Source: Escherichia phage UAE_MI-01. From it: a stretch of 44,281 nucleotides of DNA. The translations under genes and the position numbers were made by a program. Each line of letters starts with the position of its first letter. Position 1 is the stretch's first letter. Of the stretch, positions 1 through 44,281 are shown in pieces. The notes under the pieces were generated by a model. It was not told the DNA's origin, ran no database searches, and saw only the letters and a program-made list of their open reading frames with translations. The DNA lies in the sequence record MW862804. One strand, 5' to 3'.

Positions 1-280
1 TCTGAAAGACTGGGCTTTGTCCCGCCTGTCCCGATCGGCTAAAACCCGCGGCAGCACTGGCGGGGACAGGGGTGCTGTCCCGCTTTGTCCCGCCTCATTC
101 TGTCCCGCTTTTTGTCCCGCTTAGTTTATGCAATAAAACTGCATAACTATTCACATTTTGGGGGCGGGACAGATCGGGACAGCACCCCTGTCCCGCTTTT
201 AATTTATGCAATTGTGGTGAGTAAATATGCAGTTTTAGAGGTGCGGGACAAAACGGGACGTCCCGCCTGTCCCGCTCCGT
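1..280. repeat. Noncoding module copy A (right part): 13-nt mini-hairpin TCTGAAAGACTGG, array of at least 12 GTCCCGC/GCGGGAC heptamers, palindrome TTATGCA-ataaaac-TGCATAA at 126..146
   Basis: Direct reading; heptamers at 19-25, 77-83, 87-93, 102-108, 114-120, 164-170, 190-196, 243-249, 260-266, 269-275; near-identical to 16698..16850. Confidence 0.85.
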
Positions 281-956
281 TATGCGGGGTTCTGCCGCGC
301 CATTTCATCCAGCGCAACGCGTTCCATTAGCTTGATATATTTAAACGCACGTTGCGCGTTTTCGATGCCGTGCATCTTAAATAGCCATTCCAGTACGCCG
401 TAGTCGATGCCGTATGCGCCGCCGAATCCGGTACGCCATTGCGTGGCGCAATCGGTGAAGACTGCGACTATCTTCGCATTGTCGGGCCATATCGCAACAG
501 GCGGACAAACATCTTCGGGGGCCGCACCCCATAAACTTGCGGCTAAATCTTCGGAGGGTGGCGGCGGGCCATAAAAGCGTCGCGCCGCCTCAATTAGTTT
601 TTTTCACGCAGGCCCATCAGTTCGAGATAGTACGACGTGTGGAACACACCGAACGCGCGAGGGTAGTTAACCACCAGGCGGCGGACGTTCTCCGCGTTAA
701 ATTCATCTGGCAGATTCCAGCCTTCAGCGACGTGCATGATGGCCTCGACCATAACGTTAAATCCTTCCGGGTCGTTGTCGTCGTATTCCGACAGCTTGCG
801 CTCCGTGTCCTGCATGGTCTGCGAAAACTCGTCGATCGGACGGTGGCGTACTGTAAACGTCATTTTTCCCGGTTCGTTCTCACCAGGGCGCGGGATCTCA
901 ATCGGCAGCTTAAAAGTCGGCTTAGGGTCAAGTGTAAAGAGTGGTGCTTTAGCCAT
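280..956 (-). CDS. Tail assembly chaperone, -1 frameshift-extended form (lambda G-T-like fusion)
   Basis: Slippery heptamer A_AAA_AAC (minus strand, plus 597..603) two codons before the G stop; the -1 frame stays open for about 105 further codons to TAA at 280..282; position between major tail protein and TMP. Confidence 0.6.
594..956 (-). CDS. Tail assembly chaperone (lambda gpG-like), short form
   Basis: ATG at 956 with GGAGAA RBS just after a terminator hairpin; acidic small protein directly downstream of major tail protein gene. Confidence 0.6.
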   Translation of the reverse strand: MAKAPLFTLDPKPTFKLPIEIPRPGENEPGKMTFTVRHRPIDEFSQTMQDTERKLSEYDDNDPEGFNVMVEAIMHVAEGWNLPDEFNAENVRRLVVNYPRAFGVFHTSYYLELMGLREKN

Positions 957-3832: not shown

Positions 3833-3848
3833 TTGGGATGTGCGCCCG

Positions 3849-16443: not shown

Positions 16444-16659
16444 CGTTCAGTCCTCTTGTTGGTGTGCAACCAAAATAGCAGGGTGCCAGGGTGAATGCAA
16501 CCAATATTAATCACGCGTATGAAAAAGTTGATCGCTATCTGCTGTGACTGCAAACTGCATTTCTCACCCTCCATTCTGCAACTCGCATTGGTTGCCTAGT
16601 TCATCGACGACCGCAATCCGCATCATGCTGCCGTGCGTTATGCAATCCTGGATTTTATG

Positions 16660-16850
16660 CAGTCTCAGACGAGGGGGGTGACAGACCCCCCGTCTAGTCT
16701 GAAAGACTGGGGTTTGTCCCGCTTGTCCCGCCCCCCCCCAGGCCGCGTCATCCGTGGGTGGGACGGGGTGCTGTCCCGCTTTGTCCCGCCCCTGGTCTGT
16801 CCCGCTTTTTGTCCCGCTTAGTTTATGCAGTTTTATTGCATAACTATGCA
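16660..16850. repeat. Noncoding module copy B: hairpin, mini-hairpin, GTCCCGC heptamer array (6-7 copies), C9 homopolymer, palindrome TTATGCA-gttttat-TGCATAA at 16823..16843
   Basis: Direct reading; about 85-90% identical to the junction copy over the conserved core. Confidence 0.85.
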
Positions 16851-16902: not shown

Positions 16903-16983
16903 GGCAACCAATGCGCGCAAAATTTAATCATTTACCGATATGGGAATTCCCATAACGGCAACCAATGCGCGCAAAATTTAATC
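16903..16983. repeat. Two 27-bp direct repeats GGCAACCAATGCGCGCAAAATTTAATC (16903..16929, 16957..16983) flanking a perfect 16-bp palindrome TATGGGAATTCCCATA (16939..16954); third partial copy at 16868..16882
   Basis: Direct reading; lies at and just beyond the 3' end of the primase gene. Confidence 0.8.
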
Positions 16984-19242
16984 TTTTAAATCGTCATCGG
17001 TCGCTGAAAGCGTGATAGGGATATCCGATTTGATGACCAAATTAGACGACCCATAGATGGCCCCGGTGTGCGGATCGGTATAGAAACCTATCACTCCGCG
17101 CTCCACCATATCGTCGATTGCCTTCGTCGAAGTGCCACCTTTTGCGAGTCCCGCCTGGCGGACGATTGCCGATTTACTGAATCCGGTATGGTCCGGGTTA
17201 TCTTCCATCAGTTTTTCCAGTGCCGCATAAAGCACTTTCTCTTTTTCATTGCGCGGTCCGGCGGTGTTCTCTTCCTTAACTGCGGCCTTGCCTGCTGCCT
17301 TCGCCTGTTCGATGGCGAACGGTGCCAGGGCAACCGGTACAAGATACAGCGTCTCATCGCGCGGGGTGGATGCAATCGGCTTGACGTCCCAACCGGCAAC
17401 CACATCTCCGAAGTCTGGCCCGGTGCTGGTGGACTGGTGTGCCTCGAACGCTTCTGACTTGCGGAGATCCACCTTAACTTTGCACTTGAGCAGGACGAAG
17501 CCGCGCGGCGCTTGCTTGATGCCGTTACGTGACTTTTCGTGATACAGGTTCAATTGTCCGGGCTGGTTGTCGTCCGGCTGTTCCAGGAAGAAAGCGGAAT
17601 CGACAGCACCATGCAGCGCGCCGGACCCGCGTGGGGTTCTGCTGCCGTTTGCACCTTTCGCCGGGTGGTGAATGACGCCCGCACTGCCACCTGTGTTTTC
17701 CGCGATGGCCTTCAGAGCTTTGACCACTTCGCCCATATCGCTGGCGTTGTTCTCGTCGAACGGTTTAGCATCGGCGGACCGCAACGCAACCGTCTGGTTG
17801 AGTGAGTCGAACGCCACCAGGCCAACCGGCTCGCCGTTAGCGGTGCGGTTGATAAAGCTGATAACTTCACGCAAGCCAGATTTGCTGGTGATATCCCAGC
17901 CGCGGGATTGCAGATCGATAATGTGCAGCTTGTCCAGGTCGTGCTCGTATTTAATCTGCAATGCTTCTTTACGCTGGTTGGAGGCTTCACCACCTTCCGC
18001 GTCGAAATAGAAGCAATGAGACTGGACGACCTTCGCACCGCCGAACGGGATCCCTGCGGCAACCGCGCCCATTTGGCCCAGCACATAGAAAGACTTACCG
18101 ATATTCGACTCACCCGCCATGTACCAGGTCGATTTAAAGTTAATCAACCCCTCGATAATCGGGTCGTGCTTACTGAACAGCGCGACCGGCTCGTTATCCA
18201 GATCCGCATCGGTGCACACGCCGTATTCTTCGCCGTCGCCAACCGCATCAACAATATGTTCGTATAAGGATTCGACTTCCTCGTCGTCCAGCCCCGGAAG
18301 GATGGCGGCGATTTGCTTGCGCGACATGTTGTGTGGCTCGACGTTCAGGTGGTCCGGGATCCCGATAAGACGCAGCGCCAGGTGCTGGTGTCTGTTCAGT
18401 TCCGAGCAACACTCGTTGCCGGTGTGCATACACTTGAAACGGATCTCGCCATCCTTGACCATAATGGCGGTGGACCCTTCGCCGCTGTGCAGATGTTCGT
18501 TCGGGCACGGCACTTCATAACCGCGACCGGAAGATAACTCCTCGAATCCTGCCTGGAAGCACCAGTCCAGAATGCCGTCTGCCACTGCGTCGTCGCCCTG
18601 GGTCAGTTCGCGGCGGACTTCCTCTTTCTCAACTCCCAGCTTGTCCGCCAGGCGGAGCAGACGACGGACGCGGGCGCGCTTGCCATAGTGGCATTTAATA
18701 ACAGACTGCTGGTGTGGCAGGTACATCAGGCGGTTTGTGTCTTTCGTGCAGTCGTCGAAGTCCACATCTGACAGGCCCAGTTGGTGTAATAGCGCATACT
18801 GGACACGGCCCAGGTCTTCAGCCGGTACAGGCTTGTCAGTGAGTACCAGGAATCGAGCGCAACGCGTGCCGCCTTTCAGTGGGTGACGGTCGCCGGTTGT
18901 GGTGTGGAAGACGTGCTCCAGCCCCGCGTCAGTGAACGCCTTACGGCAACGGCGTAAAGTGCGGGTGTCGGTGCGGTCAATATCGAAGAACAGGATCGAG
19001 CGGTCCACCGCACTGGTCTTACGACGCAATCCGTCACTGGTATACGCCACGATGCCGTCGGCCTTACGCTTGCGGCGCGCATACTCGGCTTTATCTTCTG
19101 TCTTGTTGATATGCACCGAGGAGATTTCTTTCGCATCTTTGATAAATTCGAAAAATTCATCGGTGGTCATCTGGAAGTTTTCCGCCCTGGCTTTTTCGCC
19201 TTTTTTAGCGGGTCTTGTTACAGCGAATTTAATTAAGCTCAT
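16978..19242 (-). CDS. Bifunctional primase-polymerase / P-loop (RecA/DnaB-like) replicative NTPase
   Basis: 754 aa; N-terminal FFDIDR-type primase-polymerase motif, Cys/His zinc-binding cluster, Walker A GESNIGKS in C-terminal half. Confidence 0.7.
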   Translation of the reverse strand: MSLIKFAVTRPAKKGEKARAENFQMTTDEFFEFIKDAKEISSVHINKTEDKAEYARRKRKADGIVAYTSDGLRRKTSAVDRSILFFDIDRTDTRTLRRCRKAFTDAGLEHVFHTTTGDRHPLKGGTRCARFLVLTDKPVPAEDLGRVQYALLHQLGLSDVDFDDCTKDTNRLMYLPHQQSVIKCHYGKRARVRRLLRLADKLGVEKEEVRRELTQGDDAVADGILDWCFQAGFEELSSGRGYEVPCPNEHLHSGEGSTAIMVKDGEIRFKCMHTGNECCSELNRHQHLALRLIGIPDHLNVEPHNMSRKQIAAILPGLDDEEVESLYEHIVDAVGDGEEYGVCTDADLDNEPVALFSKHDPIIEGLINFKSTWYMAGESNIGKSFYVLGQMGAVAAGIPFGGAKVVQSHCFYFDAEGGEASNQRKEALQIKYEHDLDKLHIIDLQSRGWDITSKSGLREVISFINRTANGEPVGLVAFDSLNQTVALRSADAKPFDENNASDMGEVVKALKAIAENTGGSAGVIHHPAKGANGSRTPRGSGALHGAVDSAFFLEQPDDNQPGQLNLYHEKSRNGIKQAPRGFVLLKCKVKVDLRKSEAFEAHQSTSTGPDFGDVVAGWDVKPIASTPRDETLYLVPVALAPFAIEQAKAAGKAAVKEENTAGPRNEKEKVLYAALEKLMEDNPDHTGFSKSAIVRQAGLAKGGTSTKAIDDMVERGVIGFYTDPHTGAIYGSSNLVIKSDIPITLSATDDDLKD

Positions 19243-26565: not shown

Positions 26566-26572
26566 TTAATAC

Positions 26573-26596: not shown

Positions 26597-26608
26597 GGAG
26601 ACATGACG

Positions 26609-26827
26609 ATGAAAGAACATTACCGACTCACCAAGCTGGGCGAATGTAAACCGGGCGATCGCGTATGGCTTATTGCTGGCATTAATTCCCCGCTGCCGTT
26701 GACGGTGTGCTGGCAGAAGTTTAAGCGCTTCCGGGCCACCGGTGTCCATATCGGACACGCCACCAACTACGACGCCACAAAAAGGAACTGGAACAGTGAG
26801 ACAGAAGTCTGGAAAAAGGCGGAATAA
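26609..26827 (+). CDS. Hypothetical protein
   Basis: ATG 26609, GGGAG RBS 8 nt upstream. Confidence 0.4.
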   Translation: MKEHYRLTKLGECKPGDRVWLIAGINSPLPLTVCWQKFKRFRATGVHIGHATNYDATKRNWNSETEVWKKAE

Positions 26828-26831
26828 AGAA

Positions 26832-28256: not shown

Positions 28257-28948
28257 TTATCTGGTCATTGTTTGACGGCAGCGGCTTGATGATTGAGCGT
28301 GCTGCCGAGATGGGGCATAAGTGCTATTGCTTCAACTACTCCGAATCCGACCACGGGTCGTACCTGGACTACCGGATTTATGGTCGCGGGATCCGCTATC
28401 GCAATGCGTTTATTGATCTGGACTTTGTAGACCGCGCGATGAATGGCGATTTCGGTACGCCGGATATCATTTATGCGTTCCCACCGTGTACGGATCTGGC
28501 GGTGAGCGGTGCACCCGCTTTCCCGCGCAAGCGCGCCCGCGACCCCGCCTTTCAGCTTAAGGCGGTGCGCACCGCGAAGATCGCCGCTTACCTGGGTGAT
28601 TTCTTCGAAGTGCCATATATGATTGAGAATCCGCGCAGCGTGCTATCAACTCAATGGCGTAAGCCGGACCACTCGTTTGACCCGTGGGAGTATGGAGGAT
28701 ATCTTCCGGAGGATGACGTGCACCCGCTCTTCCCGGAATACATCAACGCCCGCGATTCATATCCGAAGCTGACCTGCTTATGGACTGGCAACGGCTTCCG
28801 TATGCCCGAGAAGAAACCTGTTTTCGTTGAAAAAGGGTACTCGAAGCAGTATAGTCGCCTCGGAGGCAAATCAGCCCGCACAAAATTAATCCGGTCGCTC
28901 ACCCCGCGCGGCTTCGCGATAGCGGTCAATGAGGAAAATTTAAAATGA
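28253..28948 (+). CDS. C5-cytosine methyltransferase-like protein with atypical motifs
   Basis: Motif I-like SLFDGSG, motif IV-like FPPCT (PCT instead of PCQ), motif VI-like IENP; only 231 aa; ATGA coupling. Confidence 0.45.
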   Translation: MIIWSLFDGSGLMIERAAEMGHKCYCFNYSESDHGSYLDYRIYGRGIRYRNAFIDLDFVDRAMNGDFGTPDIIYAFPPCTDLAVSGAPAFPRKRARDPAFQLKAVRTAKIAAYLGDFFEVPYMIENPRSVLSTQWRKPDHSFDPWEYGGYLPEDDVHPLFPEYINARDSYPKLTCLWTGNGFRMPEKKPVFVEKGYSKQYSRLGGKSARTKLIRSLTPRGFAIAVNEENLK

Positions 28949-29268
28949 ATACTACATTCGAGGCCATTGATTTTTCGGTTGCAATGACTAACCAGTTATT
29001 CTCCTACGACAGCAAGACCGGCGTCATTCGCCTGAAGTCCACCGGATGCAAGATCGGCAACCTTAACACTGCCGATGGCGGTACTCGTATCGAATGCAAC
29101 GGCAAGACGCTATCCGGCGCACGCGTGGCGTGGATTATTGAGACTGGCAATACAATCCCTCCAGGCTATGCCGTAGTGTGCCGTCAACGCACACCAGGCC
29201 ATTACGGCAACCGCATTAGTAACCTGTATCTGGTAGACGTTGCGCGCGACCCAAATTTTTATTCGTAA
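28945..29268 (+). CDS. Hypothetical protein
   Basis: ATGA coupling; 107 aa. Confidence 0.45.
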   Translation: MNTTFEAIDFSVAMTNQLFSYDSKTGVIRLKSTGCKIGNLNTADGGTRIECNGKTLSGARVAWIIETGNTIPPGYAVVCRQRTPGHYGNRISNLYLVDVARDPNFYS

Positions 29269-29349
29269 ATTGGTTGCATAACCGTATTGGTTGCATTATA
29301 TTGAGGGTGTCCGGTTTGGACGCCCTTTTTAATACCCGGAGACAGTGAT

Positions 29350-29592
29350 ATGAAATCATTATTTTTCGACTACGACGGCGACCTTCGATTTTGGGTGCTC
29401 CTCACCCTAATGATTGCCGTTTGTGTTTGCGTACCTGCCGCGGGTGTCTACTACTCGGAACGCTACGAATGCCGGACTGTGTACGCGGAGCAAACAGGTC
29501 GCAACACCCAATGGCGCTATGGTGTCTGCTGGGTAGAGATGGACGGCAAATATATTCCACGCGATGAAATCCGCACTACGGAGACTAAATAG
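29350..29592 (+). CDS. Small membrane protein
   Basis: GGAGA RBS; one hydrophobic segment; preceded by tandem TTGGTTGCA motifs. Confidence 0.45.
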   Translation: MKSLFFDYDGDLRFWVLLTLMIAVCVCVPAAGVYYSERYECRTVYAEQTGRNTQWRYGVCWVEMDGKYIPRDEIRTTETK

Positions 29593-30057
29593 ATGAAAAT
29601 TTTACAAGAAGAAAAAGCATACTGGGCCGCGCAATGCCTCGAAGCCCGTGAACAGGCCGAACGTGCGAACGCGTTGGCGGACACCAACCAGGCGCTATAT
29701 GAAGGAGAGAAGAAAGTGCGCCGGGAGTTAGAGGAGCGCTTCGAACTGCTATTCGAATTGATGGGGATTATGCAACGCACAGGATACACCACCAGCGTTG
29801 CGCTAAACCGCATTACTGCCGAAGGTCTGCGTGAACATTGCAAACGTGCGGAGGCGTATGTGCCTCCGAAGGGTCGCCAGTCTAAGATCGACAGGAAAGA
29901 CCTGGTGCTTATGGCGTGGCGCAACCCTACAAACGGCAGCTTTTACCCAGACGCGCGCCCGCTTAGTGCCGAGGAGACAAAGCGCGTGCAACGCATTCTC
30001 AAAACCGGCAATAAAATCGCCCTGTATGCGATAGACACCGACCATGCAGAAGAGTGA
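29593..30057 (+). CDS. Hypothetical protein
   Basis: 154 aa; start abuts upstream stop. Confidence 0.45.
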   Translation: MKILQEEKAYWAAQCLEAREQAERANALADTNQALYEGEKKVRRELEERFELLFELMGIMQRTGYTTSVALNRITAEGLREHCKRAEAYVPPKGRQSKIDRKDLVLMAWRNPTNGSFYPDARPLSAEETKRVQRILKTGNKIALYAIDTDHAEE

Positions 30058-30529
30058 GCAAAAAGATAGCTGGCGCACGCCGCCAGCTTTATTTAAACCG
30101 CTGCGCCGGAAATACCGATTCCGTTACGATATGGCGGCAAGCGACACCAACCATCTGCTACCACGTTACTTCACGGCGGAGCACAGCGCGCTTGATGCGG
30201 ACTGGGCAGAGTTGAAAGGGTGGAAGTGGTGCAACCCGCCGTATTCCGATCCGCTGCCGTGGGTTGAGTGCGCAGCGCACGGGCGCCGGACTGTCATGCT
30301 GCTAAATCAGGATACGTCAACGAAGTGGGCGAAGCTGGCCCGGAAGACCGCAAACCTGATAATTCTTCTGGACTGGCGTATCCGATTTATACACGCTGTG
30401 ACCGGTGAAGTCGGGCCGAGCAATAACAAGTGTCAGCAATTGATAATCTTTGACGAAGCGCCACCCATAGGCAGCGCACAAATTGAAATAATGAGCGAAG
30501 GAGAACTCCTTGAATATCTTAATAGTTGA
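30044..30529 (+). CDS. DNA N6-adenine methyltransferase (phage Dam family)
   Basis: WRTPP...F near N-terminus and NPPYS catalytic motif; about 160 aa as typical for this family. Confidence 0.7.
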   Translation: MQKSEQKDSWRTPPALFKPLRRKYRFRYDMAASDTNHLLPRYFTAEHSALDADWAELKGWKWCNPPYSDPLPWVECAAHGRRTVMLLNQDTSTKWAKLARKTANLIILLDWRIRFIHAVTGEVGPSNNKCQQLIIFDEAPPIGSAQIEIMSEGELLEYLNS

Positions 30530-30734
30530 CCGCGACCCCGCGGTCGTAGACCAAATGCAAAAAGACTATAACATTGACCCGCGCCGCGATCGTGTGCGTC
30601 GCGTGTCACGACCTGAGTACCTCCTGGGCATGGACCTTACTGGGTGGCTTGTCATTACCCGACGTTGCCATTTCGTGTGCAACTCTTTCACCGCGCGGAG
30701 CGCCCGATACACCCTTATTGAGGCATTGAAATGA
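30510..30734 (+). CDS. Hypothetical protein (TTG start)
   Basis: AAGGAG RBS 6-7 nt before TTG; stop overlaps next start (ATGA). Confidence 0.35.
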   Translation: MNILIVDRDPAVVDQMQKDYNIDPRRDRVRRVSRPEYLLGMDLTGWLVITRRCHFVCNSFTARSARYTLIEALK

Positions 30735-31201
30735 AACTACTGATTTGTGACCTGGATGGCGTTATTAACGGTTCAAGCGATGCGCGTGCCGACCTGGTGC
30801 CGGGGATAAAAACGAAATCCACCTTCTGGGCGAAGTGGCACAAAGCGCATATACGCGAAGATCTGAACATGGATATGCTGCCGCTGTTGCGCATGTATAA
30901 AGCGCAAGGCTTCGAGATCGCGTATCTGACAAACCGGCAGCGAGAATGTTGGGACACCACCGCCGAACAACTGGAAGTATTCCCGACAGGCCGGTTGTTT
31001 ATGCGCCACATGCTGGACGATACCCCGCCGCCAGAGTTTAAGGCGTGCGCCGTGTTCAAAATGGTCTGCTATGCGGACGTGTCGGAACTGGTCATCATTG
31101 AAGATTGCGAGAAGAACATCGCGGCAATTCGTCGGGCGTGCGGAGATTTGGTCCCGAAAATTTATGCGATAAACGTTGCAAAATTCACTTGCAACCAATA
31201 G
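30731..31201 (+). CDS. HAD-superfamily hydrolase (nucleotidase/phosphatase-like)
   Basis: N-terminal LICDLDGVI matches HAD motif I (DxDG). Confidence 0.55.
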   Translation: MKLLICDLDGVINGSSDARADLVPGIKTKSTFWAKWHKAHIREDLNMDMLPLLRMYKAQGFEIAYLTNRQRECWDTTAEQLEVFPTGRLFMRHMLDDTPPPEFKACAVFKMVCYADVSELVIIEDCEKNIAAIRRACGDLVPKIYAINVAKFTCNQ

Positions 31202-31264
31202 GTTGGTTGCACTATAGTAAACGTGTCGGGGGCAATACTGCCCCCTCACTAAAAGGGTAATACT

Positions 31265-31756
31265 GTGAAAGCATACGAATACTGCAAAAACGCCGCCACC
31301 ACTATGGAACAGCGCGGGAAAGAAAACGGCTATGACAACGCTAAAGAAGAACGCAGCGCTAAACAGATCGCCGCCGTGTTTAACGCGCTTACCGGTCGCG
31401 ACCTTACCGAGCAAGAAGCCTGGACCTTCCTGATCTGCCTGAAGCTGGTGCGCCAGCACCGTAAGCACCAGGAAGATAACATCGTGGATCTGGTCGCGTA
31501 TGCGGCCCTGCTGGGCGAATCTTACATGACCGTGCATGACGAGATCCAGATCGATACAACGGCAGCACAATTCGACAGCCTCAAAGGCGGGCATTCATCT
31601 GAGGGCAAGACGGTTAAAGCCGCTAATTTTGGCATCGCAGATCAGGACGTCCAGCCTATGGTCGTGCTCACCGGCGAAGACGGATCTAAAATCTGCATGA
31701 CGCAGGAAGATTTCCGTAACATGGAAAAAACACTGGTGACTGGCGCACTTAAATAA
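31265..31756 (+). CDS. Hypothetical protein (GTG start)
   Basis: AAGGG RBS; preceded by palindrome CAACCAA-tagg-TTGGTTG. Confidence 0.4.
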   Translation: MKAYEYCKNAATTMEQRGKENGYDNAKEERSAKQIAAVFNALTGRDLTEQEAWTFLICLKLVRQHRKHQEDNIVDLVAYAALLGESYMTVHDEIQIDTTAAQFDSLKGGHSSEGKTVKAANFGIADQDVQPMVVLTGEDGSKICMTQEDFRNMEKTLVTGALK

Positions 31757-31798
31757 TTCTAATCGCGGGCTTCGGCCCGCATCAATGAGGACCACACA

Positions 31799-32374
31799 AT
31801 GTACGGCGAATATGAAATATCGGGTAAACAATTCCACCTTGCGGCAATGATAGCAAGCATCGAGTTTGACCAGTGGCGATACAAGTCTGACGCGTGCAAG
31901 CAAAGCCGTCTGGTCGGTGTGCTGGGTGAGATGTTTGCGGGCATGTACCTCGAAGGGCAGGCGGGCGGGCGTAGCTGTATCCCGCAAGGTTTGCTAATGC
32001 GCACCGGCCTGTTTAGCGCTAACACTATCGACCGCGGCGATATTATCATGGTCGGCAAGCGCAAGGTAAAATCCGGTCCCGACTTCCGCGAACATGTGAT
32101 CGATGCCGTATGGACTTACGAGGTTAAAGCCACCAGCGGCATCCGTCGAGGACTGGTAGAGGCACGCTGCGCTCGCGAGTATCTTACCCGTCGCGTTGCC
32201 GGTGTTATCCTTGTGGGCGTAGATTTCGGGCAACATAGCGCGCACGGCGTGATCGAGGATATCGCGGAGCCATACGTGATAGTGAACGACTGGCCCCTGG
32301 TGGAAGTGGATGGTAAGGAATACTACGAAAGCCCGCTTGTGCGGCGCAAAATGGACTGGGAAAACTCAAACTAA
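31799..32374 (+). CDS. Hypothetical protein (possibly nuclease-like)
   Basis: 191 aa; D...EVK arrangement is weakly suggestive of a PD-(D/E)xK site; last gene before bidirectional terminator. Confidence 0.35.
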   Translation: MYGEYEISGKQFHLAAMIASIEFDQWRYKSDACKQSRLVGVLGEMFAGMYLEGQAGGRSCIPQGLLMRTGLFSANTIDRGDIIMVGKRKVKSGPDFREHVIDAVWTYEVKATSGIRRGLVEARCAREYLTRRVAGVILVGVDFGQHSAHGVIEDIAEPYVIVNDWPLVEVDGKEYYESPLVRRKMDWENSN

Positions 32375-32378
32375 AAAA

Positions 32379-32395
32379 GGGGGCCGCACGGCCCC
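32379..32395. terminator. Bidirectional terminator between replication module and tail fibre gene
   Basis: GGGGGCC-gcac-GGCCCC flanked by A6 and T-rich tract. Confidence 0.65.
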
Positions 32396-32401
32396 TTCTC
32401 C

Positions 32402-34018
32402 TTATTTACCTTCCAGCTTCTCCACTTTATGCAACAGGTGGACGAAGGCGGCACACAGATCCATCAACAGCACGTTACTATCCAAAGACAGCACATCGTC
32501 GGTATACCCGATCTCCTTGCGGTCGACTACAACCTCATTCCCTTCCTCGTCCACCCCCTTGACGTCCTCATAAATGGCGTAACCCGGCAGCAAATGCACG
32601 TATTCTGGGTCGATCCTTGCCAGGTCCTGCGCGATAAGGCCGTATCGCTGTACGTCCGACTCCTTATACTTGAACATTGCCGGAAGCCATTGGCGAACGC
32701 GGTTGTAGCTTTCCTCGCCGTCTGTGTATTGGATTTCTTTTTTAAGGTCGCGGTCCGATAGCGGCGCTTTCTGGAACTCGTTAACCGACGGGTTGCCGCT
32801 GTTACCGCTAATAAGCCTTTGGTCTGGCAAGAAGCGGAATAGCGCCTCAGTCACACCATTCTTCCACACATGGACGCGGTAGTCTGATACGTGTGTATCC
32901 CCACCCCTTACCAGGCCCGCGCGCGTCCAGTCCGCATACCACCTATACATCGTATGCCCAACCCAGCTATCAATCCCGTATAAAGCGTTTGACAGACTTA
33001 GCCCGTTAGCCTCTAGGGGCGCTAACTCTACTGAACTGCCGCCATTCAGGTGCAGCGCACCTAACTTAACTAAACTATCCTCGCCGACCCCAAGATTAGT
33101 GCGCGCAGCGGCTACAGTAGTCGCCCCTGTTCCGCCCTTGGTGATAGGCACTGTGTTCTCCGTAGCGACAGACCCCAAACCTAGATTTGAGCGTGCCGCC
33201 GATTGATCTGCTACGTCTGCCAGGTTCTGAGACGTCTTCATGAATTGCGTAGGGTCGATCGCGTTTTTGAAGTCTTCTGCTTCGTCCCGATACCCTTTCG
33301 CGGCATCTCTGGCGGCTTGCGCGTCAGTCTTCGCCGTATTGGCCTGGTCCCGAATAATGCCGGTATCCGTCCTGATCTGATTCGTCTGGTCCTTGATGGC
33401 TTGCGTATCGGCCTTAATCTGATTCGTCTGCGTCTTGATGGTGTTGGTGGCGTCGTGGATCGCCTGCGTATCGGCCTTGATTTGGTCGGTCTGCGTCTTG
33501 ATGGTATTGGCATCGTTCTTGAAGCCTTCGGCCTCATTGCGAAATCCTTGCGCGGCTGCTTCAGACGCGGCGGCTTGTTGTTGTAGGTTGCGCATCTCCA
33601 CCGGGTCGATCTGCTTCATTAGCTGCGACAGATATCCCCATGACATGCCCTGCATAACCTGCCCGTTAGGTAACGTCACTGTGATTTCTTCAGCGTCGCC
33701 AAAGATTGCACGCCAGTTGTTTTCGTCAGCGATCATCAAGCGCAACGCTTTTTGGGCCTGTACTGTTACGCCCATCGTTGCCAGAGACATGGTATCGCGC
33801 TTAACGCCATCCCACGCGAGGCCAGTTGCCGTGGGGCCGTCGAACGGCAGCACAAGCGTAAGCGCGGTGTCGCTTTCTATGGACGCGATTGCCACGGTGT
33901 ATGGGACTTGCCCTACCACCAACGTTAAGAAGTCGCCAGATGCAAACGCGGTAAACGTCGTGCCTACCCCGACAACCGCCTTGCTGTTATTCGTTACGGA
34001 TAGTGTACCCGCTGCCAT
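32402..34018 (-). CDS. Tail fibre protein with coiled-coil repeats and C-terminal intramolecular chaperone (peptidase S74-like) domain
   Basis: ATG 34018 with GAGGA RBS; repeated IKTQTDQIKADTQAI heptad-like units; C-terminal SDRDLKKEI ... GLIAQDL segment characteristic of auto-cleaving fibre chaperone domains. Confidence 0.65.
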   Translation of the reverse strand: MAAGTLSVTNNSKAVVGVGTTFTAFASGDFLTLVVGQVPYTVAIASIESDTALTLVLPFDGPTATGLAWDGVKRDTMSLATMGVTVQAQKALRLMIADENNWRAIFGDAEEITVTLPNGQVMQGMSWGYLSQLMKQIDPVEMRNLQQQAAASEAAAQGFRNEAEGFKNDANTIKTQTDQIKADTQAIHDATNTIKTQTNQIKADTQAIKDQTNQIRTDTGIIRDQANTAKTDAQAARDAAKGYRDEAEDFKNAIDPTQFMKTSQNLADVADQSAARSNLGLGSVATENTVPITKGGTGATTVAAARTNLGVGEDSLVKLGALHLNGGSSVELAPLEANGLSLSNALYGIDSWVGHTMYRWYADWTRAGLVRGGDTHVSDYRVHVWKNGVTEALFRFLPDQRLISGNSGNPSVNEFQKAPLSDRDLKKEIQYTDGEESYNRVRQWLPAMFKYKESDVQRYGLIAQDLARIDPEYVHLLPGYAIYEDVKGVDEEGNEVVVDRKEIGYTDDVLSLDSNVLLMDLCAAFVHLLHKVEKLEGK

Positions 34019-34098
34019 AGCTGAATCCTCATAAATTGGTTGCAATCCAGGTCGAGCGGTGTAATACTAAAACTCAACCAAATATAGGGGATGATACC

Positions 34099-34317
34099 AT
34101 GAAAACCTTAATTATGATTTGTGCGGTTCTTTTGTCCGGTTGCGCCAACATGCCGTCTAAAATCTGCGACGCGACATATGTTAATAGCGGCATGGAATAC
34201 TCGGTCCCGGTGTTCGGTGTTGCCGATTTTAGTGGGCATAAAATGCTGCGGGCGGGCTACCCGTTCAACTTCCGGTATGTTTCGGTAGACCACTTCAAAA
34301 GCACCACTTGCAAATAA
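34099..34317 (+). CDS. Small outer-membrane lipoprotein, Cor/Llp-like superinfection exclusion candidate
   Basis: Signal peptide with lipobox LLSGC; 72 aa; divergently oriented inside the tail fibre region; own RBS and terminator. Confidence 0.45.
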   Translation: MKTLIMICAVLLSGCANMPSKICDATYVNSGMEYSVPVFGVADFSGHKMLRAGYPFNFRYVSVDHFKSTTCK

Positions 34318-34333
34318 GCCCCAGAAGGGGCTT
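34318..34333. terminator. Bidirectional terminator
   Basis: AGCCCC-agaa-GGGGCT. Confidence 0.55.
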
Positions 34334-35005
34334 TCATATTCCATCCACGTTAATCGCTGTCAAAGCAACCCCAGTGTTTTGATACCCCGCGACGCTACCA
34401 GACCCCGCTTGTGTTGCCACGGCGTTAATCCGTGTTCCGCTTCCGTTGTCGTAAGCCCCTGCCCCCGCCGTGATCTGGATAATCTGCGGCTGCCCCTGTA
34501 CAAAGATCTGAATCAGAGTAGCGCCCATTAACATAGGTGATACCGCGTACTTACCTGGTAGCGTCTGGTCTATGTTAATCCCTCCGTTATTGCCGAAGCT
34601 GCCAACGGTGACTAAATCGGTGAGTACCTTGCTTTCGTTGGTTAGTATGCAAGTCCCGCTGGCGTCCCAAATAGCAAACCCCCATCTCGGCAGCGGTTGC
34701 GGGAATCGCGCGAATATGTACGCCGTGACGGTAAAATGTGGGTTATTCTGCCCCTGAATGCTTCCGCTAAATATAATCCGGTTACCTGATCGTGACGCCG
34801 CCAGGACGCAGCGGTTATTTGACCGCATAAACACCATCGCCGGATAGTTCGATGGGATATCCACGCCCCCGCTTGCGGTTTTATAATCAGCACCGGCGTC
34901 CACTGAATTTGCCGACACCTTAGCGTAGAGGACGAACGGCGTTGAGTTTGGCGTGACGAATGGGTTGCCGTTGTTGTTATCGATTAACGCGCCGAAGTTT
35001 GCCAT
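34334..35005 (-). CDS. Tail-associated protein (putative distal tail / fibre protein)
   Basis: 223 aa Gly/Asn/Ser-rich; downstream of J-like gene; GGAGAA RBS. Confidence 0.4.
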   Translation of the reverse strand: MANFGALIDNNNGNPFVTPNSTPFVLYAKVSANSVDAGADYKTASGGVDIPSNYPAMVFMRSNNRCVLAASRSGNRIIFSGSIQGQNNPHFTVTAYIFARFPQPLPRWGFAIWDASGTCILTNESKVLTDLVTVGSFGNNGGINIDQTLPGKYAVSPMLMGATLIQIFVQGQPQIIQITAGAGAYDNGSGTRINAVATQAGSGSVAGYQNTGVALTAINVDGI

Positions 35006-35007
35006 TT

Positions 35008-35310
35008 TTACGCTTTCTCCACAAAAACTACTACTTCACATTCTGACGCCGGGTAGTTTCCAATACCGACGCTGTTTGCCGCAGATACTGTTATCGTGTT
35101 CCCGCTGGCACGGATCGCCCGACCGACCGTAGTGCCGCCTACGTCCAGCGTAACCGCAAAACCTACTTTCATACCGGACGGGATATCGAACGACCACGCC
35201 CCCCATGTTTGACCTTGAGTCAGTTTAATAATTCCGACAACCGAGACAGGCTTGATCCCGTAGTTGTTTGGTCGCCCTTGCGCGTCCCATGTTGCGACAC
35301 CGAAAGCCAT
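35008..35310 (-). CDS. Small tail-associated protein (putative)
   Basis: ATG 35310 with GGAGG RBS after intergenic hairpin; synteny. Confidence 0.4.
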   Translation of the reverse strand: MAFGVATWDAQGRPNNYGIKPVSVVGIIKLTQGQTWGAWSFDIPSGMKVGFAVTLDVGGTTVGRAIRASGNTITVSAANSVGIGNYPASECEVVVFVEKA

Positions 35311-35347
35311 GCTATACCTCCAAAAGAAAGGGGCCGAAGCCCCTATG

Positions 35348-38300
35348 CTACCAACTACCAGTGAGTTCACCAATCTGCACGCGGAGCACGCCGTTTCCGT
35401 CCCTAACGCTGATTTGCGTGTTTGTCTGTTTCATCCCGCCGCCGTTACCGGTTCCCAGGTTGATAAACGTTCCGTCTTTCCCTAAGCGCCAACCACGCGT
35501 GTTGCCGTCATAGTTATTCGATTGCAGCGTGTCCGTGATCTGCGCGAAGTTGATGGACGCATTCTTGATGCGTGCGGTGTCAATGTACACCTGTCCGCCG
35601 TCAACAATAAACGCGGACGAAAGCGACCCATTCGACGGGTGCATGATGTAGAACTGGTCCGCCTTGAACGCGATGCGTGATTTAACCGCGCCGCCTTCCG
35701 CAACGACGGAAAGTTGCATACCGGCATCGTAGTAAGTCCCGTTATACGTTACGCCCGCCTTGAGGCTGTAGGTAGCGTTACCACCGGAGTGGTTAAACGT
35801 AGACGTCATCTTCTGCTCTATAGCGGCGGACTGCTGCCCGAACTGTGCCGCCACCTGGGTCTTGTACTCCGCCAGCGCGCCCGCTACGTCTGCCGTTGCC
35901 GTTTGTACCTGCTGGATGGCGGCTTCCTGTTCCCCAAACTTAGCGGCAACAGTTTGCTGATACTGGGCGAATGCTTGCTCGTGCGTGCTTTGCGCGGTCT
36001 GCAACGTGTGGATTGCCGCTTCCGCATCGTCAAGGCGCGTGCCGATCAACGTCTCCAGTTGCGCTACGGCCTTGTTGGCATCCGCGGCTACGTTATAAGC
36101 CACCTTGATTTCTGCGTAAATCCCTTTGTACTCGGCACGGGCGTTAAACAACTGCTGCGCGTCGGTGAGCATTGCCTCGTAAATACCCTGCGGGATCGTG
36201 TCGATTGCTTCCTGGAAGCGTTTACCATCCTCGGAAGTCAAGAACTCGTTATCAAGCCCCTTCATGTACTCGTCAACTTTGTCACTCACCTGCCCTTCAA
36301 ACGGGGCCGACCAGTCCGACAGGTTGCCGATTTTATCCGCTACACGGGCGCGCAACTGCTGGTAAATTCCGAACTCCAGCGACGTTTGAGCGTACTCCGC
36401 GCCAGGATATGGGACGTTTGTTAAGAATTTCCATTCCGTTTCGCCCGTCTTGCGCACTTCAAGCTCGGTGTAAGAGATATCCGTCGCGGCGTTGTTGTGG
36501 TTCCACTTCCATAGGATCTGGTGCAAACCTGAAATCGCGTTGGTGATGATTGGCGCATTAAGTCCACCGAGGCGACCTTCGATCGGCGTGATGGGAGACG
36601 ACACCCACGGGGACGAGATTTCACCCATACCGATTGCGCGGACGCGTGCCTGATAGTTACCGGAGAACACGTTGGGGATGTGCGCCCCATTCGACGCCGT
36701 GCGCGGGATATTCACCCAGTCGTTACCCCACTGGATTTCCATATTCTGCAGGCTTGTACGCCGCCACTGGATTTCATACACCACGGCATCCTTCACCGGC
36801 GGGAAAACAATATCCACGTTGGTGATTAGCTGGCCTTGCGATGAGATCTGCGACGGGGTGATGGTAACGGATTCCGGCCCCTTCATTACACCGTCTGGCA
36901 CTTGCGTGAAGATACCAGGATCAAGGCGAGCGCCATTATCAACGGCATCATACTTGCTGTCGTTGTATTCAATCCCGCGCACCGAAAAAGTGCTCGTAGA
37001 GTCGTCATACTCCAGATCGGTGATGCGGAATTTTTGCAACTGGATATCGTCGCCATCAACGCAAAACGGCTGGTCTGGAATCGGGTCGGCATCCAGTGCG
37101 GTTTTTAGCGTGACCTTGTTGCCGTTGACGCTGGCGATCTCGCGAGTCTCCACATTTCCGCTATCTGTGCGGACCAGGAACTTATCGCCAGGGCGGAATG
37201 TGATTTCGCTGTCTGTGTTAAGCACGGTACGCGTGCCAGGGTCCGACAACAGGCGACCGCCGCGAGTCTCGAATCCGCCAGAAATATTAGTATCTGCGAT
37301 CGCAACTACGCTACCAGGGATAAAGAATAACCCCTCCATGCCCACCTTAAAACTAACTTGCTGGTCAAGCTGGTTTGAGATTAGCGCCCAGTGCCCGCGG
37401 CGTTGCGCTTCAGATTCACGCGTACAGCCGATCGCCGTAATATCAAGACGGTTAATCTTATGGCGGCGCACCAGTTCGACGCGCTGTCCCGTTGCGATGG
37501 CATCTTCATAGTGGTTCTTCGGGTTGCCGTATGCGACCGCGAAAGTTGAATACCGAGTTTTCTGGCTGCCAGATGCGTAGTCGAATCGTCCATCAATAAC
37601 CGAGGCGTTGGTGATAGTGTGTGACACTGCCGCGACCGGTTGGTCACTGACGATATTCAACATCTGGTTTCCCCACCAGGTCATTCCGGCGAAGATGGCG
37701 GCTAAATCCTTAAGCACGGTCCAGGCGTCTGTCTGCGACTGGATGTACATATCATTCTTAAATCGGATTTCCCGTCCGCCGTTGCCGTCGCTGACCAGCT
37801 GGTCGCAGCGCTGCGCAATCTGGTAGAGCGCGTACCGGTTCAGCATTTGCGGTTTGATACGCCGACCGAGGCCGAATCGCTCAGTAATACAAATATCGTA
37901 CCAGTGCCACGCTGGGTTATCCGTCCATGCGCGTTTGAATGTGCCGTCCCAGTCTCCCGAATAAGTATGATTGATCGGGTCGTAGTTGTTCGGGATTAAA
38001 ACCTTGCGGCCTTTGCACTTGATGGACACGCGCGGGATGTTCTGGAACGCTTTAGCGTCGAACTCCACAAACAACAGCGCAGTTAGAGGGTAACGCAGGC
38101 GGGCGTCGATAATCTCAGTGATGGACTGCACCCGGATATCATTAACCACTTTCGCCGATGTGGAGTCTGCCGTTATGCGGTGCACCTCCACGCGCCAGCC
38201 GGTGTTAACGTTCGGCGGCAGTTCGATGCGGTGATCGCGCTCGTACAGCGACATTGTTTTACCAACGGCAGCGAATGTAAACTCACGCGGGTCGGCGTTA

Positions 38301-41534: not shown

Positions 41535-44177
41535 TCATCGTTTATAAAGTACACCACCCGGTTTCGTTGCCTTCACGATCTCGGACTTCACCGCCTCGGT
41601 GATCTGCTTGCCGAACGCCTGCGCGGTACGGGGGTCCGGCCCGCTGACACTGGTATCCGTTTTACCGGTACCCGTGTAAACGTTAGTCGTCACGACCATA
41701 CCCCCGCCTGCGCCAGACGCGGCAACGCCCAGTTTCCCGTCCGGCCCGCGCTTCAGTGGCATGATGGCCTCGGGACCAGCCTCGCCCATCAATCCTGCGC
41801 CCTTAGCGAACGCCTGGACGCCATAACTGAAAAAGGTAGGCTGGCTTACCACTTTCCCCGAATAGGCCGCGAGATTGCCTCCTGCGTACGCTCCGCCGTC
41901 CGCATTCTTGGTGAGGCCCGAGAAGATAGCGCCGAACAATCCGTTTTTGCCGCCGTCGCCACCAAAAGCGCTAACGATCGACTTGAAAGCCTGCGAGGTA
42001 GCCAGCTTGATTAATTCGCTCAGGATGGACTTAACCATATCCTTTGCGTTCAGCTTGCCCGTCTCGAAAAACTCGTTCATCGTGTCTTGCATAGCGCTGA
42101 ACGTGAATTTTGTGAGCGTCGTCATCTGCGTATATCCGTTACCCATATCATCCACACTATCCTTAAGCCCGCGGCTGAAGCCATCCCATAGCGAGGCGTT
42201 AGCTCCGGTCTGTGCTTCCTGCACTTCGCGCAGCTTAGACACCGCCTTGTCTATATCGGTATCGTTAGCGCCAACCCGCTTCAGGCGATCAATTAGCTGC
42301 AATTCTTCGCGCAGGTTTGCCGCTTCGCGAGTGGAAAGCGCATACCCCGCGGCGGTGGCTTTTAGTTCGGCGTTCTGGTTCTTAACGAAGGCATCGATCT
42401 GCGCGTGCGCCTTAACCTGCTGCTCTTTCGCATCCAGCAATTTGGCTTCTTCGACGATCTGCTCGCGGACTTCCTTCACGCGCCCGAACTCGACTAATTG
42501 CTGCTTTTCTGCTGCCGTTAGCGCTCTTTCTTTGCTCGCAGCGATTAACTGCTCATTGTCGGCGATCAGCTTGTTTAAGGCCGCTTGAGCGCGTTGCGTG
42601 CGGGTCTGCGTAGACGCGTTGGCTTCGATCTGCTTGCCGGATTCTCGAAGCTGGGCCAGTTCGCTCCGTGCGACTTCCAGCATTTTCATACCGGCATCCA
42701 CGCGAACAGCCGCGGCCTTCTTCGGGGCGGGATCTTTGTAGCGCTCGTTTACCTGCTTCACCGCCTCGGCAAGCTCTTTCTCGTCAATAACGCCACGCTT
42801 ATTCAGCAAATTGAGACGGGCGATCTCGTCGGCGCGCTTCTTCGCGTTAGTTGCGTACTCCTTCTCGAACGCGGCGCGGTCGCGAGCGGTGCGGTTGGCC
42901 TCCTCGTTCGCCTTTGCGGATTCGTCCGCGGCACGGGCGTTGTCGCGCTCCGCACGGTTACGCAGGGTGAGCGACGCCACTACTTTCTCCTGGGCGACCA
43001 GTTCGCTGTAAAGCATGTTAATACGCGCTTTCTGCGCTTCAGTCATTACCCCACCGGCAGCGTTTACCGCTTTCATCTCGGCATAGTAAGCCGTGGTTAG
43101 TCGCTGCAATGACTCACGCGCTTTCATCTCAGATTCATTGGAGGACTGCGCGCGGCCCACATCCAGGATGGCGTCCCACATTGATTTGGCTGCCGATGTG
43201 ACGCCGTTCATCGACCGCTCAAGCGTACCCATGTTGGACTTGATTTCATTGGTCATGCTGGTGAACGACGCAGCGGCTGTTTTGTTAGCCAACGCAACTG
43301 CGTCTGTCTCACGACCCGCATCAACGAGCGACTGTACCTGCTGGATCTGCGCTTCGTTTACGACGTGATACTTATCCGCCAGCGCACGCAGTCCGCCAAC
43401 GGGGTCGGTTGACAGCTTCGCCACAGCCGCTACCACATCCTCGATCGGCTGGCTGGACACCTTCGCGAAGTCATTCACTACCTTAGCCAATGCGCCGAAG
43501 TCACCACCCGCTTTCACACCTGCCGCCGCCAGCGCCTGGATTGTGTCACGCGTCTTGCGAAATGACCCGCCCATGCGCTCGGCGTTCTCGGACAGCACCA
43601 GGATCTGGTTAGCGGTGAGGCCGGAGATATTACCAGACAGCGCCAGCGTCTTGTTAAGCGCTGCCACCTGGTTCTCTGCTCGGGACGTAATTGCCACGCC
43701 CACGCCTAAAGTCGCCGTTACAGCGGTGAGGCCGATCCCTACGGGGCCGAGGAAGCCCGCAACATACCGAAGCGTGTTACCCAGTCCGCCAAATGCGCCG
43801 GTTAGCTGTGGTAACTGCTGAAGCATGACGCGGTGCACCGGCATACCCATCTCAAGCGTAACCGCGATATCCTGTAACTGGAATGCGGCGTTACGCGAGG
43901 CAAAGCCCAAGTTTTTTGTCGACATGCCTAATCGGCTGGCGAGTCGCTCCTGTTTCGTCATGCCGTCGGCGGCGCGCTGCGATTCAGTCGCTAACTTTTC
44001 CATTCCGCCCGCGGCGTCGCCAGTAACCTTTTTCGACTTGCCGAGTGTGTCGTTTAATTTTTTTACTTTCTGTTCTGTGTTCTCGGATTTCTGCGCAAAT
44101 GTGTCCAGCACAGTATTAGCCGTTTTAATTTGCGCGACGTCCGCCTTGAGCGTGATGCCCGCTGCCTGATCTGCCAT
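41535..44177 (-). CDS. Tail tape measure protein
   Basis: 880 aa, Ala/Gln/Lys-rich predicted coiled coil with Gly-rich hydrophobic segments near N-terminus; follows chaperone genes across the window junction. Confidence 0.85.
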   Translation of the reverse strand: MADQAAGITLKADVAQIKTANTVLDTFAQKSENTEQKVKKLNDTLGKSKKVTGDAAGGMEKLATESQRAADGMTKQERLASRLGMSTKNLGFASRNAAFQLQDIAVTLEMGMPVHRVMLQQLPQLTGAFGGLGNTLRYVAGFLGPVGIGLTAVTATLGVGVAITSRAENQVAALNKTLALSGNISGLTANQILVLSENAERMGGSFRKTRDTIQALAAAGVKAGGDFGALAKVVNDFAKVSSQPIEDVVAAVAKLSTDPVGGLRALADKYHVVNEAQIQQVQSLVDAGRETDAVALANKTAAASFTSMTNEIKSNMGTLERSMNGVTSAAKSMWDAILDVGRAQSSNESEMKARESLQRLTTAYYAEMKAVNAAGGVMTEAQKARINMLYSELVAQEKVVASLTLRNRAERDNARAADESAKANEEANRTARDRAAFEKEYATNAKKRADEIARLNLLNKRGVIDEKELAEAVKQVNERYKDPAPKKAAAVRVDAGMKMLEVARSELAQLRESGKQIEANASTQTRTQRAQAALNKLIADNEQLIAASKERALTAAEKQQLVEFGRVKEVREQIVEEAKLLDAKEQQVKAHAQIDAFVKNQNAELKATAAGYALSTREAANLREELQLIDRLKRVGANDTDIDKAVSKLREVQEAQTGANASLWDGFSRGLKDSVDDMGNGYTQMTTLTKFTFSAMQDTMNEFFETGKLNAKDMVKSILSELIKLATSQAFKSIVSAFGGDGGKNGLFGAIFSGLTKNADGGAYAGGNLAAYSGKVVSQPTFFSYGVQAFAKGAGLMGEAGPEAIMPLKRGPDGKLGVAASGAGGGMVVTTNVYTGTGKTDTSVSGPDPRTAQAFGKQITEAVKSEIVKATKPGGVLYKR

Positions 44178-44245
44178 TATGCAGTCCCCCTTTTTATGCA
44201 GTTGCCGTCGGTTATTGTATCAGCGAATTTAAAACAAACCTTATT

Positions 44246-44281
44246 CAGTCTCAGACGAGGGGGGCCATTGACCCCGTCTAG
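44246..44281. repeat. Noncoding module copy A (left part): conserved hairpin CAGTCTCAGACGAGGGGGG-loop-CCCCGTCTAG, continuous with window position 1
   Basis: Matches 16660..16697 (same stem, different loop); window end plus window start reproduces the contiguous internal copy. Confidence 0.85.

Follow-up and report, generated by a model that had tools for sequence, protein, structure and literature searches.

The genome of Escherichia phage UAE_MI-01 (MW862804) is deposited as one linear stretch of 44,281 nucleotides, referred to here as the window. When its two ends are joined, they spell out a module that is also found once in the interior of the same stretch. This raises the question of whether the window ends are the physical termini of the virion DNA or only the place at which a circular assembly was opened, and what the repeated module might do for the phage.

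To address this, the artificial end-to-start junction was compared by BLASTN with positions 16301-17100. The window ends with ...CAGTCTCAGACGAGGGGGGCCATTGACCCCGTCTAG (44246-44281) and starts with TCTGAAAGACTGGGCTTTGTCCCGCC..., and the internal copy reads ...CAGTCTCAGACGAGGGGGGTGACAGACCCCCCGTCTAGTCTGAAAGACTGGGGTTTGTCCCGC... from 16660 onward. Positions 44241-44281 followed by 1-154 aligned to 16655-16851 as one colinear match with 163/198 identities (82%) and 4 gap positions (E=4e-48), and a repeat search separately recovered the same pieces (D5, D7, D14, and D17). We call the copy that is split by the window ends copy A and the internal one copy B. A 565-nt query across the join was covered to at least 80% in one piece in 151 of 157 related GenBank phage records, with a best identity of 98.4%. 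In an alignment of 13 genomes, no base was lost or gained at the join; the only nearby difference was a single G missing from a run of Gs located 6-10 nt before the window end. These data confirm two parts of the original prediction, namely that the last 36 nt and the first ~150 nt together reproduce the internal module, so that the ends are circularly continuous, and that the window is a complete genome. The further statement that the genome had been linearised exactly at a module boundary was incorrect, as the break falls within the 48-50-nt hairpin that belongs to the module, after the first 36 nt of this hairpin.

Megablast searches with positions 1-6000 and 26000-38000 as queries returned ~160 phage records with 80-95% identity to the window, none of which was identical to it. 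Nearly all of the matched records belonged to the genus Dhillonvirus, being phages of Escherichia or Shigella such as HK578, SO-1, SSL-2009a, and JL1, and the gene order of the window was that of HK578 in reversed orientation. Judged by its sequence, the window represents an entire Dhillonvirus genome of the HK578/SO-1-like type, circularly permuted.

The late genes, including the portal and head genes, are all encoded on the minus strand. Among the minus-strand genes are those for the terminase large subunit TerL (10110-11495; Terminase_6N/6C), the terminase small subunit TerS (11495-12067; weak matches to P22 gp3 (GP3_package) and Sf6 TerS (Sf6_terminase)), the major tail protein (1025-1750), the tail assembly chaperone G (594-956), and the tape measure protein (41535..44177). 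Chaperone T is the -1 frameshift extension of G, reaching to about position 283, with the slippery sequence GAAAAAAAC at 597-605. Also on the minus strand is the gene for a helicase-primase of 754 amino acids (16978..19242), which contains an AAA_25 domain at 357-531 and matches PHROG 3228, "replicative helicase-primase." An HTH protein of 109 amino acids is encoded at 19253-19582. Both window ends sit in a 384-nt non-coding gap that extends from the GT stop to the tape-measure start.

We next considered how this DNA is packaged. Three independent PhageTerm analyses assigned Opt-212 (PMC9022532), BF9 (PMC10059673), and UDS3lw (PMC13348001) to the headful (pac) class, with one fixed end and otherwise distributed ends; the assemblies of these phages circularise, and all three are close relatives of the window phage. 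The TerL of the window is 98-99% and its TerS 97-98% identical to the proteins of these PhageTerm-typed phages. The supplement on BF9 reports a single significant read-start peak at position 28168 on the minus strand (T=0.53, p=8e-65; PMC10059673), and its top-five PhageTerm lists for both strands contain no peak near copy A or the tape-measure gap. Position 28168 of BF9 aligns to window position 16544, and the GenBank records of UDS3lw, PEC9, and Pandora71 begin at the exact nucleotide homologous to window 16544. From this exact coincidence with three record starts, we infer that the "BF9_new" coordinates are those of the GenBank record.

The pac end occupies positions 16519..16544 on the minus strand; the packaged strand begins at 16544 and reads CAGCAGATAGCGATCAACTTTTTCAT on the minus strand. 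Its first 15 nt (CAGCAGATAGCGATC) were invariant in 13/13 genomes, and the next 11 nt were nearly invariant in the same set, with two variable positions. Packaging from 16544 runs toward lower coordinates, and the end lies 116 nt from the copy B hairpin. In several GenBank records, the first base lies close to copy B and the first CDS is placed at 101-102; a software convention behind these starts was ruled out for UDS3lw, PEC9, and Pandora71 by the exact match to the BF9 peak. The record of HH3 starts at 16654, 5 nt past the homologous copy B hairpin. The HK578 and Opt-212 records were deposited with terS as their start because these assemblies circularise. None of the 13 full relative genomes has a record start at the nucleotide homologous to the window start.

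Together, the near-identity of TerL and TerS, the BF9 peak, and the three record starts argue that the real packaging end is probably at 16544, beside copy B and 16.5 kb away from the window ends. Neither window end is likely to be a terminus, and the cos-like physical ends that had been considered for this position are very unlikely. Copy B had been proposed to act as an uncut pseudo-terminus in case the window ends were real; the roles appear to be reversed, with copy B adjoining the real end and copy A being the uncut one. Headful packaging from a pac site would yield virion DNA with no unique pair of ends, and its assembly would be expected to close into a circle. Circular continuity is ordinary for the assembly of a headful phage, and physical termini cannot be deduced from a seamless end-to-end join that falls inside a repeat.

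The assembly was opened arbitrarily, inside the strong GC-rich hairpin of copy A. The contigs of PNS1 and Lzu_P3 were left untrimmed, each with a 127-nt overlap between its ends, and break at window positions 266-392 and 271-397, respectively. BEK2-2 starts at about 420 with a gap of about 500 nt, and the metagenomic IMG/VR contig 3300045988_009799 stops within the CGGGACGTCCCG palindrome, at about 182. These are four other independent assemblies that break in or next to copy A, a clustering that is suggestive only. Besides a 32-nt inverted repeat, the copy A region contains many short repeats and a number of hairpins that are rich in GC. A break in such a repeat-rich region fits the suggestion of an assembly break at a repeat, but not in its simple form. 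The longest exact word common to copies A and B is 34 nt long and lies at 99-132, away from the break, and the collapse of an exact repeat was therefore rejected as the direct cause. The break may instead stem from coverage loss or chimeras related to structure, or from inversion heteroplasmy.

The module core measures 184-187 nt (~185 nt) in both copies. Read in the direction of late transcription, it begins with a quasi-palindrome of the form TTATGCA-N7-TGCATAA in a stretch of 67-71% A+T. This is followed by a pair of CGGGACA boxes 12 nt apart and by a second pair 10 nt apart, after which an inverted box gives rise to a small hairpin. After a copy-specific stretch of 35-40 nt comes a third pair of boxes, 9 nt apart, and the core closes with a long hairpin of the form CAGTCTTTCAGACTAGACGGGGG(G)-loop-CCCCCCTCGTCTGAGACTG.

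In copy A, the first 36 of the 48 nt of the long hairpin are at 44246..44281 (CAGTCTCAGACGAGGGGGG, loop, and CCCCGTCTAG..., GC-rich and imperfect), where the window is cut in the right arm, and the last 12 nt (TCTGAAAGACTG) are at 1..12. Its predicted RNA fold has an energy of -27 kcal/mol with z values of -3.3 to -4.0. The copy A iteron array (18..125) consists of six co-oriented GTCCCG(C) boxes, which read CGGGACA on the coding strand, and one inverted box, with start-to-start spacings of 9, 49, 10, 15, and 12 nt. The AT-rich 21-bp quasi-palindrome of copy A (repeat I11) is at 126..146, and positions 119-160 are 71% A+T, compared with 45% for the genome. A part specific to copy A (155..283) lies directly after the GT stop and contains an inverted second box set, the CGGGACGTCCCG palindrome, and terminator-like hairpins; the inverted box set corresponds to the 32-nt inverted repeat 63-94/163-194 (I1).

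The corresponding elements of copy B are a 50-nt hairpin at 16660..16709 (fold of -28 to -31 kcal/mol, z of -3.6 to -4.7), an iteron array at 16715..16818 with six direct boxes and one inverted box (spacings of 9, 48, 10, 16, and 12 nt), and a 21-bp AT-rich quasi-palindrome at 16823..16843, whose central 7 nt run in the opposite orientation to those of copy A. Positions 16817-16868 are 67% A+T, and the AT-rich element is short.

Thus, each core presents short repeats phased in non-coding DNA, six direct and one inverted, with 9-16 nt within the pairs. The two modules contain 16 of the 22 GTCCCGC sites of the genome, and the other six match the chance expectation. Among 46 distinct sequences, the hairpin stem was nearly invariant and the loop varied, and in a divergent lineage we noticed a compensatory A-T to G-C change at the base of the stem. 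A search for a host origin of the module gave no match in 5,426 E. coli genomes.

Copy B is located 127 nt downstream of the helicase-primase stop codon. IMG/VR was scanned without regard to genes for groups of three CGGGACA boxes separated by short gaps, and at least 120 viral stretches with CGGGACA arrays were found, whereas by a rough estimate only a handful were expected by chance. The GC content of the loci ranged from 31 to 72% among the matches listed, and many of the listed arrays consisted of 4-10 direct boxes, a GC-rich palindrome, and then inverted boxes. From the matches listed, 115 non-Dhillonvirus loci were analysed, with up to 15 kb of DNA fetched per locus. A homologue of the helicase domain was present in 53 of these 115 loci, and in 45 of them the array was within -150 to +400 nt of the 3' end of the helicase gene, usually at 0-120 nt. 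For 62 of the 115 array loci among the matches listed, no helicase homologue was found within the fetched DNA. Some arrays at those 62 loci are plainly coding repeats. A further class of arrays is found inside small ORFs with a weak MarR-like or wHTH-like helix-turn-helix.

The primase domains fused to the array-linked proteins vary, being Prim-Pol, Toprim with a zinc ribbon, or none that was recognised; what the array accompanies is therefore the helicase part. In more remote homologues, this position is occupied by different repeat arrays that are specific to the lineage, together with a TATATA box and a GC hairpin. The C-terminal tails form one family in 39 of 47 other array-linked helicases. 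When the C terminus of the Dhillonvirus helicase-primase was compared with that tail family, phmmer returned nothing, hmmsearch gave 4 bits, and hhalign gave a probability of 2%. No DNA-binding domain was identified in the helicase-primase, for which a single-sequence model of the C-terminal 130 amino acids was unusable (pLDDT 40), and a PDB sequence search with the protein gave no match.

Neither of the two copies resembles a terminus element in itself, and the module appears to be a replication-origin iteron array. The arrays adjoining helicase 3' ends across phages argue for an origin beside an initiator-helicase gene, and the module is most likely an iteron-type replication origin of the phage. 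The AT-rich 21-bp quasi-palindrome would then be a candidate unwinding element, and the six phased CGGGACA boxes would be candidate binding sites for the helicase-primase or a partner protein. Copy B, just downstream of the helicase-primase gene, would occupy the canonical place of such an origin.

Copy A, 16.7 kb from copy B, is flanked by the genes for the tail chaperone and the tape measure protein. In distant phages with homologous tail chaperones, the distance from the T stop to the tape-measure start was -41 to +65 nt in most loci, and the longer gaps of this kind that we examined contain a gene, suggesting that the 384-nt non-coding insert is specific to Dhillonvirus. The length, box positions, and hairpin of copy A were kept in every genome examined (13 full genomes and divergent lineages), and its inter-box sequence diverges while the boxes and hairpin persist. 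In a lineage whose major tail protein is 73% identical, copies A and B share lineage-specific variants. The hairpin tops of A and B were identical in 8 of 25 genomes, in five variants, compared with 2.8 expected (p=0.0016), which indicates sequence exchange or co-selection. By analogy, we infer that copy A is probably a second initiator-loading site of the P4 crr kind.

Several other explanations of the ends and of the module were weighed. Physical termini at the window ends, cos-like or made by a pac cut at copy A, with copy B as the uncut counterpart, would account for a seamless break in a structured, conserved, non-coding element, for the HH3 record start just behind the homologous copy B hairpin, and for the 5' cos reported for the Dhillonvirus EE09 (PMC10673088). 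However, the EE09 "cos" falls at window ~29298 within a promoter-like TTGGTTGC region that is unrelated, is unsupported by any other data set, and has a sequence, ATCTTAAGGG, that is absent from the window. With TerL and TerS 97-99% identical to those of headful/pac phages, an end mapped to 16544 and no BF9 top-five position near copy A, and a junction that is internal in 151/157 relatives, we regard termini at the window ends as highly improbable. The module could instead be the array recognised by TerS, that is, pac proper, with copy B directing the cut 116 nt away and copy A bound but left uncut. Short repeats in phase on either side of a cut occur in P1 pac and in SPP1 pacL/pacR, copy B does adjoin the mapped pac end, and several arrays in other contigs lie near contig ends among the matches listed. 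Against this, the arrays of unrelated phages track the 3' end of the helicase gene and not the terminase genes, copy A has a full array but no listed BF9 read-start peak, and about 55 nt of copy B, two boxes among them, are missing from EE09. The cut-site sequence at 16519-16544, with its invariant first 15 nt, is unique to copy B, which suggests that pac specificity resides there and not in the shared module. A TerS recognition array is thus an unlikely identity for the module.

A role in transcription was considered as well, in which the hairpin would serve as a terminator, RNA-processing site, or antitermination element and the boxes as activator sites, placed before the late operon (copy B) and before the tape-measure and tail-tip genes (copy A). 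Both copies are co-oriented with late transcription, a promoter-like TTGCAT-17-TATTTT follows copy B at 16472-16500, and an extended -10-like TGATACAAT at 44214-44222 follows copy A upstream of the tape-measure start. The conserved stem with its variable loop and one compensatory change, the U-rich run that comes after a short gap behind the copy A hairpin, and the terminator annotated by HK578 in the A-specific part point in the same direction. On the other side, scans for sigma-70-like promoters and canonical terminators scored nothing in the shared core, the copy B hairpin has no U-tract and is followed by GAGACUGCAUAAAAUCC, both strands fold about equally well, and the link to a helicase gene across phages is unexpected for a late-transcription element; we see a transcription cassette as a minor possibility. 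Rfam 15 gave no match in the whole window at the gathering threshold and one chance-level match (E=1.3) around copy B, and tRNA and tmRNA searches gave no match. An antitermination RNA like HK022 put, with two adjacent stem-loops in two copies, was rejected on the grounds of the one long minimum-energy hairpin, the equal folding of the strands, and the lack of an Rfam match, and a Rho (rut) site on the antisense strand was rejected with C barely exceeding G (42 versus 35). Finally, copy A might be a functionless duplicate of the origin region that recombined into the tail operon and is merely tolerated. The absence of such a gap in distant relatives with homologous chaperones and the exchange of sequence between A and B are compatible with this, but the 184-187-nt length, the boxes, and the hairpin are kept everywhere examined, the 73%-identity lineages included, and the compensatory change preserves the pairing of the stem. 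Copy A as a mere remnant is therefore quite improbable.

As a whole, the observations are best explained by an arbitrary permutation of a headful genome that was opened in a duplicated candidate origin module, with pac at 16544, a reading to which we assign a probability of roughly 0.6. A more far-reaching version remains tentative, and we hold it to be rather doubtful: the two 185-nt units of iterons and hairpin, 16.7 kb apart and one of them within the tail operon, may form a bipartite origin that is gene-converted and bridged by the helicase-primase, with pac 116 nt from one of the units, and CGGGACA may be an origin code shared by well over 100 otherwise unrelated phage lineages with AAA_25 helicase-primases.

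The literature searched contained nothing relevant on a Dhillonvirus pac site or on the box sequence. It mentioned neither a pac end mapped to the nucleotide nor the candidate origin with its conserved duplicate in the tail operon, nor the wide link between CGGGACA and AAA_25 helicase-primases, whereas an iteron origin is a known kind of element. For Dhillonvirus, a common coliphage genus with therapeutic and model members, our results provide a candidate origin and a pac end defined to the nucleotide (16544). If the link between CGGGACA arrays and AAA_25 helicase-primases holds, origins could be predicted in metagenomic phage genomes from sequence alone. The conserved copy A in the tail operon offers a tractable case in which origins with two sites, as in P4 ori/crr, could be studied.

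Compared with known systems, the likeness to lambda cos is superficial and limited to a linear record that ends in a structured non-coding region; unlike the situation in lambda, no fixed ends were seen in the relatives, and the terminase type and read data indicate headful packaging. The pac phages P1, SPP1, and P22 are closer, given the one sharp initiation cut seen in BF9, the Terminase_6 family, and a TerS that weakly resembles P22 gp3 and Sf6 TerS. They differ in that the cut at 16544 is about 4.5 kb upstream of terS and not inside or adjoining it, and in that the module is repeated at a site with no listed BF9 peak.

Among replication systems, the iterons of lambda (ori-lambda) lie within the initiator gene O, which is mirrored by the subset of CGGGACA arrays in other viral contigs that lie inside small wHTH-like ORFs. 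In contrast, the arrays of the window are intergenic, and the associated protein is a helicase-primase and not an O-type initiator. For the Rep helicase of the staphylococcal pathogenicity islands (SaPIs), the origin lies immediately 3' of rep, with iteron sets flanking an AT-rich stretch. The candidate origin of the window is likewise directly downstream of a helicase gene and combines short iterons with an AT-rich element, and in both cases the iterons are lineage-specific among homologues. The differences are the helicase family, the GC-rich hairpin within the unit, and the second copy here as opposed to the single SaPI origin.

Satellite P4 offers the remaining comparison. Its alpha protein is reportedly a primase-helicase with origin recognition that acts on ori and a distant crr (cis replication region). 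The helicase class of P4 alpha differs from the AAA_25 (RepA-like) domain of the Dhillonvirus protein, and no sequence similarity between the two was found, as a PDB search with the Dhillonvirus helicase-primase gave no match of any kind. The box is CGGGACA here and TGTTCACC in P4, and the two sites are 16.7 kb apart here compared with 4.5 kb in P4. As in P4, primase and helicase are combined in one protein, and short boxes are arranged in two separated clusters that lie kilobases apart on one genome.

The pac end of the genus is position 16544, precise to the nucleotide. Both the PhageTerm read-start peak of phage BF9 and the record starts of the related phages UDS3lw, PEC9, and Pandora71 map to this position, which belongs to the minus-strand motif CAGCAGATAGCGATCAACTTTTTCAT (16519–16544). 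The first 15 nt of this pac motif are invariant among the 13 genomes of the full-genome alignment, whereas two later positions are variable. The motif also contains a GATC site.

The small terminase gene, terS, is located ~4.5 kb downstream of 16544, a distance that is unusual for a pac site. Two other record ends fall at or near the GC-rich hairpins of the two module copies, copy A (hairpin 44246–44281 plus 1–12) and copy B (hairpin 16660–16709). The record of phage HH3 begins at the equivalent of 16654, 5 nt past the copy B hairpin, and the window's own cut lies inside the copy A hairpin. In all other genomes examined, the hairpin homopolymer run of copy A has one G/C more than that of the window (44270–44273). 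This run is situated 6–10 nt from the window end, and the missing nucleotide may reflect a homopolymer error or one arising at the contig end.

Both module copies carry a 21-bp element, TTATGCA-N7-TGCATAA, whose central 7 nt are inverted in copy A (126–146) compared with copy B (16823–16843). At both loci, close relatives also differ in the orientation of this element, as seen for copy A of EE09 compared with that of BF9. The pattern suggests recurrent quasi-palindrome inversion. The structure of copy B is plastic among relatives. UDS3lw has a tandem partial duplication in copy B (last 400 nt of its record), with two hairpins directly joined to a box pair, and copy B of EE09 lacks ~55 nt, a loss that takes in both the copy-specific stretch and box pair three. 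Between the helicase-primase stop codon and copy B there are 54-nt tandem units (16886–16990), each carrying one CGCATTGGTTGCC box together with an almost perfect palindrome (ATATGGGAATTCCCATA at 16938). Their number differs by phage, from none up to three, the latter in PNS1.

The 8-mer GCAACCAA/TTGGTTGC occurs at 19 sites in the window compared with ~1.4 expected. Its sites are mostly paired and intergenic, with examples at 5853/5867, 16466/16497, 16588, 16869/16904/16958, 22691/22707, 29270/29287, and 31191/31203. The 8-mer is contained in promoter-like sequences, namely TTGCAT-17-TAT(A/T)TT arrangements at 16472–16500 (minus strand) and 29274–29302 (plus strand) and a near-identical 23-nt element found at 5861–5883 and 16457–16479. 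It probably acts as a promoter or operator motif specific to the phage. Just upstream of the helicase-primase gene, the minus strand encodes a 109-aa helix-turn-helix protein (19253–19582) with Sigma70_r4_2 and HTH_23 matches, which is annotated in relatives as either a transposase or "Gam." Regulation and box binding are candidate roles for this protein. Two early-region ORFs (19757–20527 and 22750–23556) carry long GAC/GAT/GAA-rich repeats (20100–20480 and 23330–23550) encoding acidic D/E-rich stretches that alternate with K/R-rich segments.

An extended −10-like element, TGATACAAT (44214–44222, minus strand), separates the hairpin of copy A from the start of the tape-measure gene and is kept in 13 of 13 genomes. 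One divergent lineage has a related AAATTCGC(A/T)nAT element after the hairpin in copy A and copy B alike. In the divergent relative IMGVR_UViG_3300045988_050407, a small reverse-strand gene (4215–4460 of that record) that brings a TTGGTTGC-box promoter region of its own interrupts the interval from the tail chaperone gene to copy A, indicating that this gap tolerates insertions on the upstream side of the module. On the minus strand, the major tail protein gene is directly followed by a canonical terminator (978–994), in which a T-run comes after GGGGCCAGCACGGCCCC, and the tail chaperone gene contains a G/GT −1 frameshift site, GAAAAAAAC (597–605); both features are typical of lambda-like tail operons.
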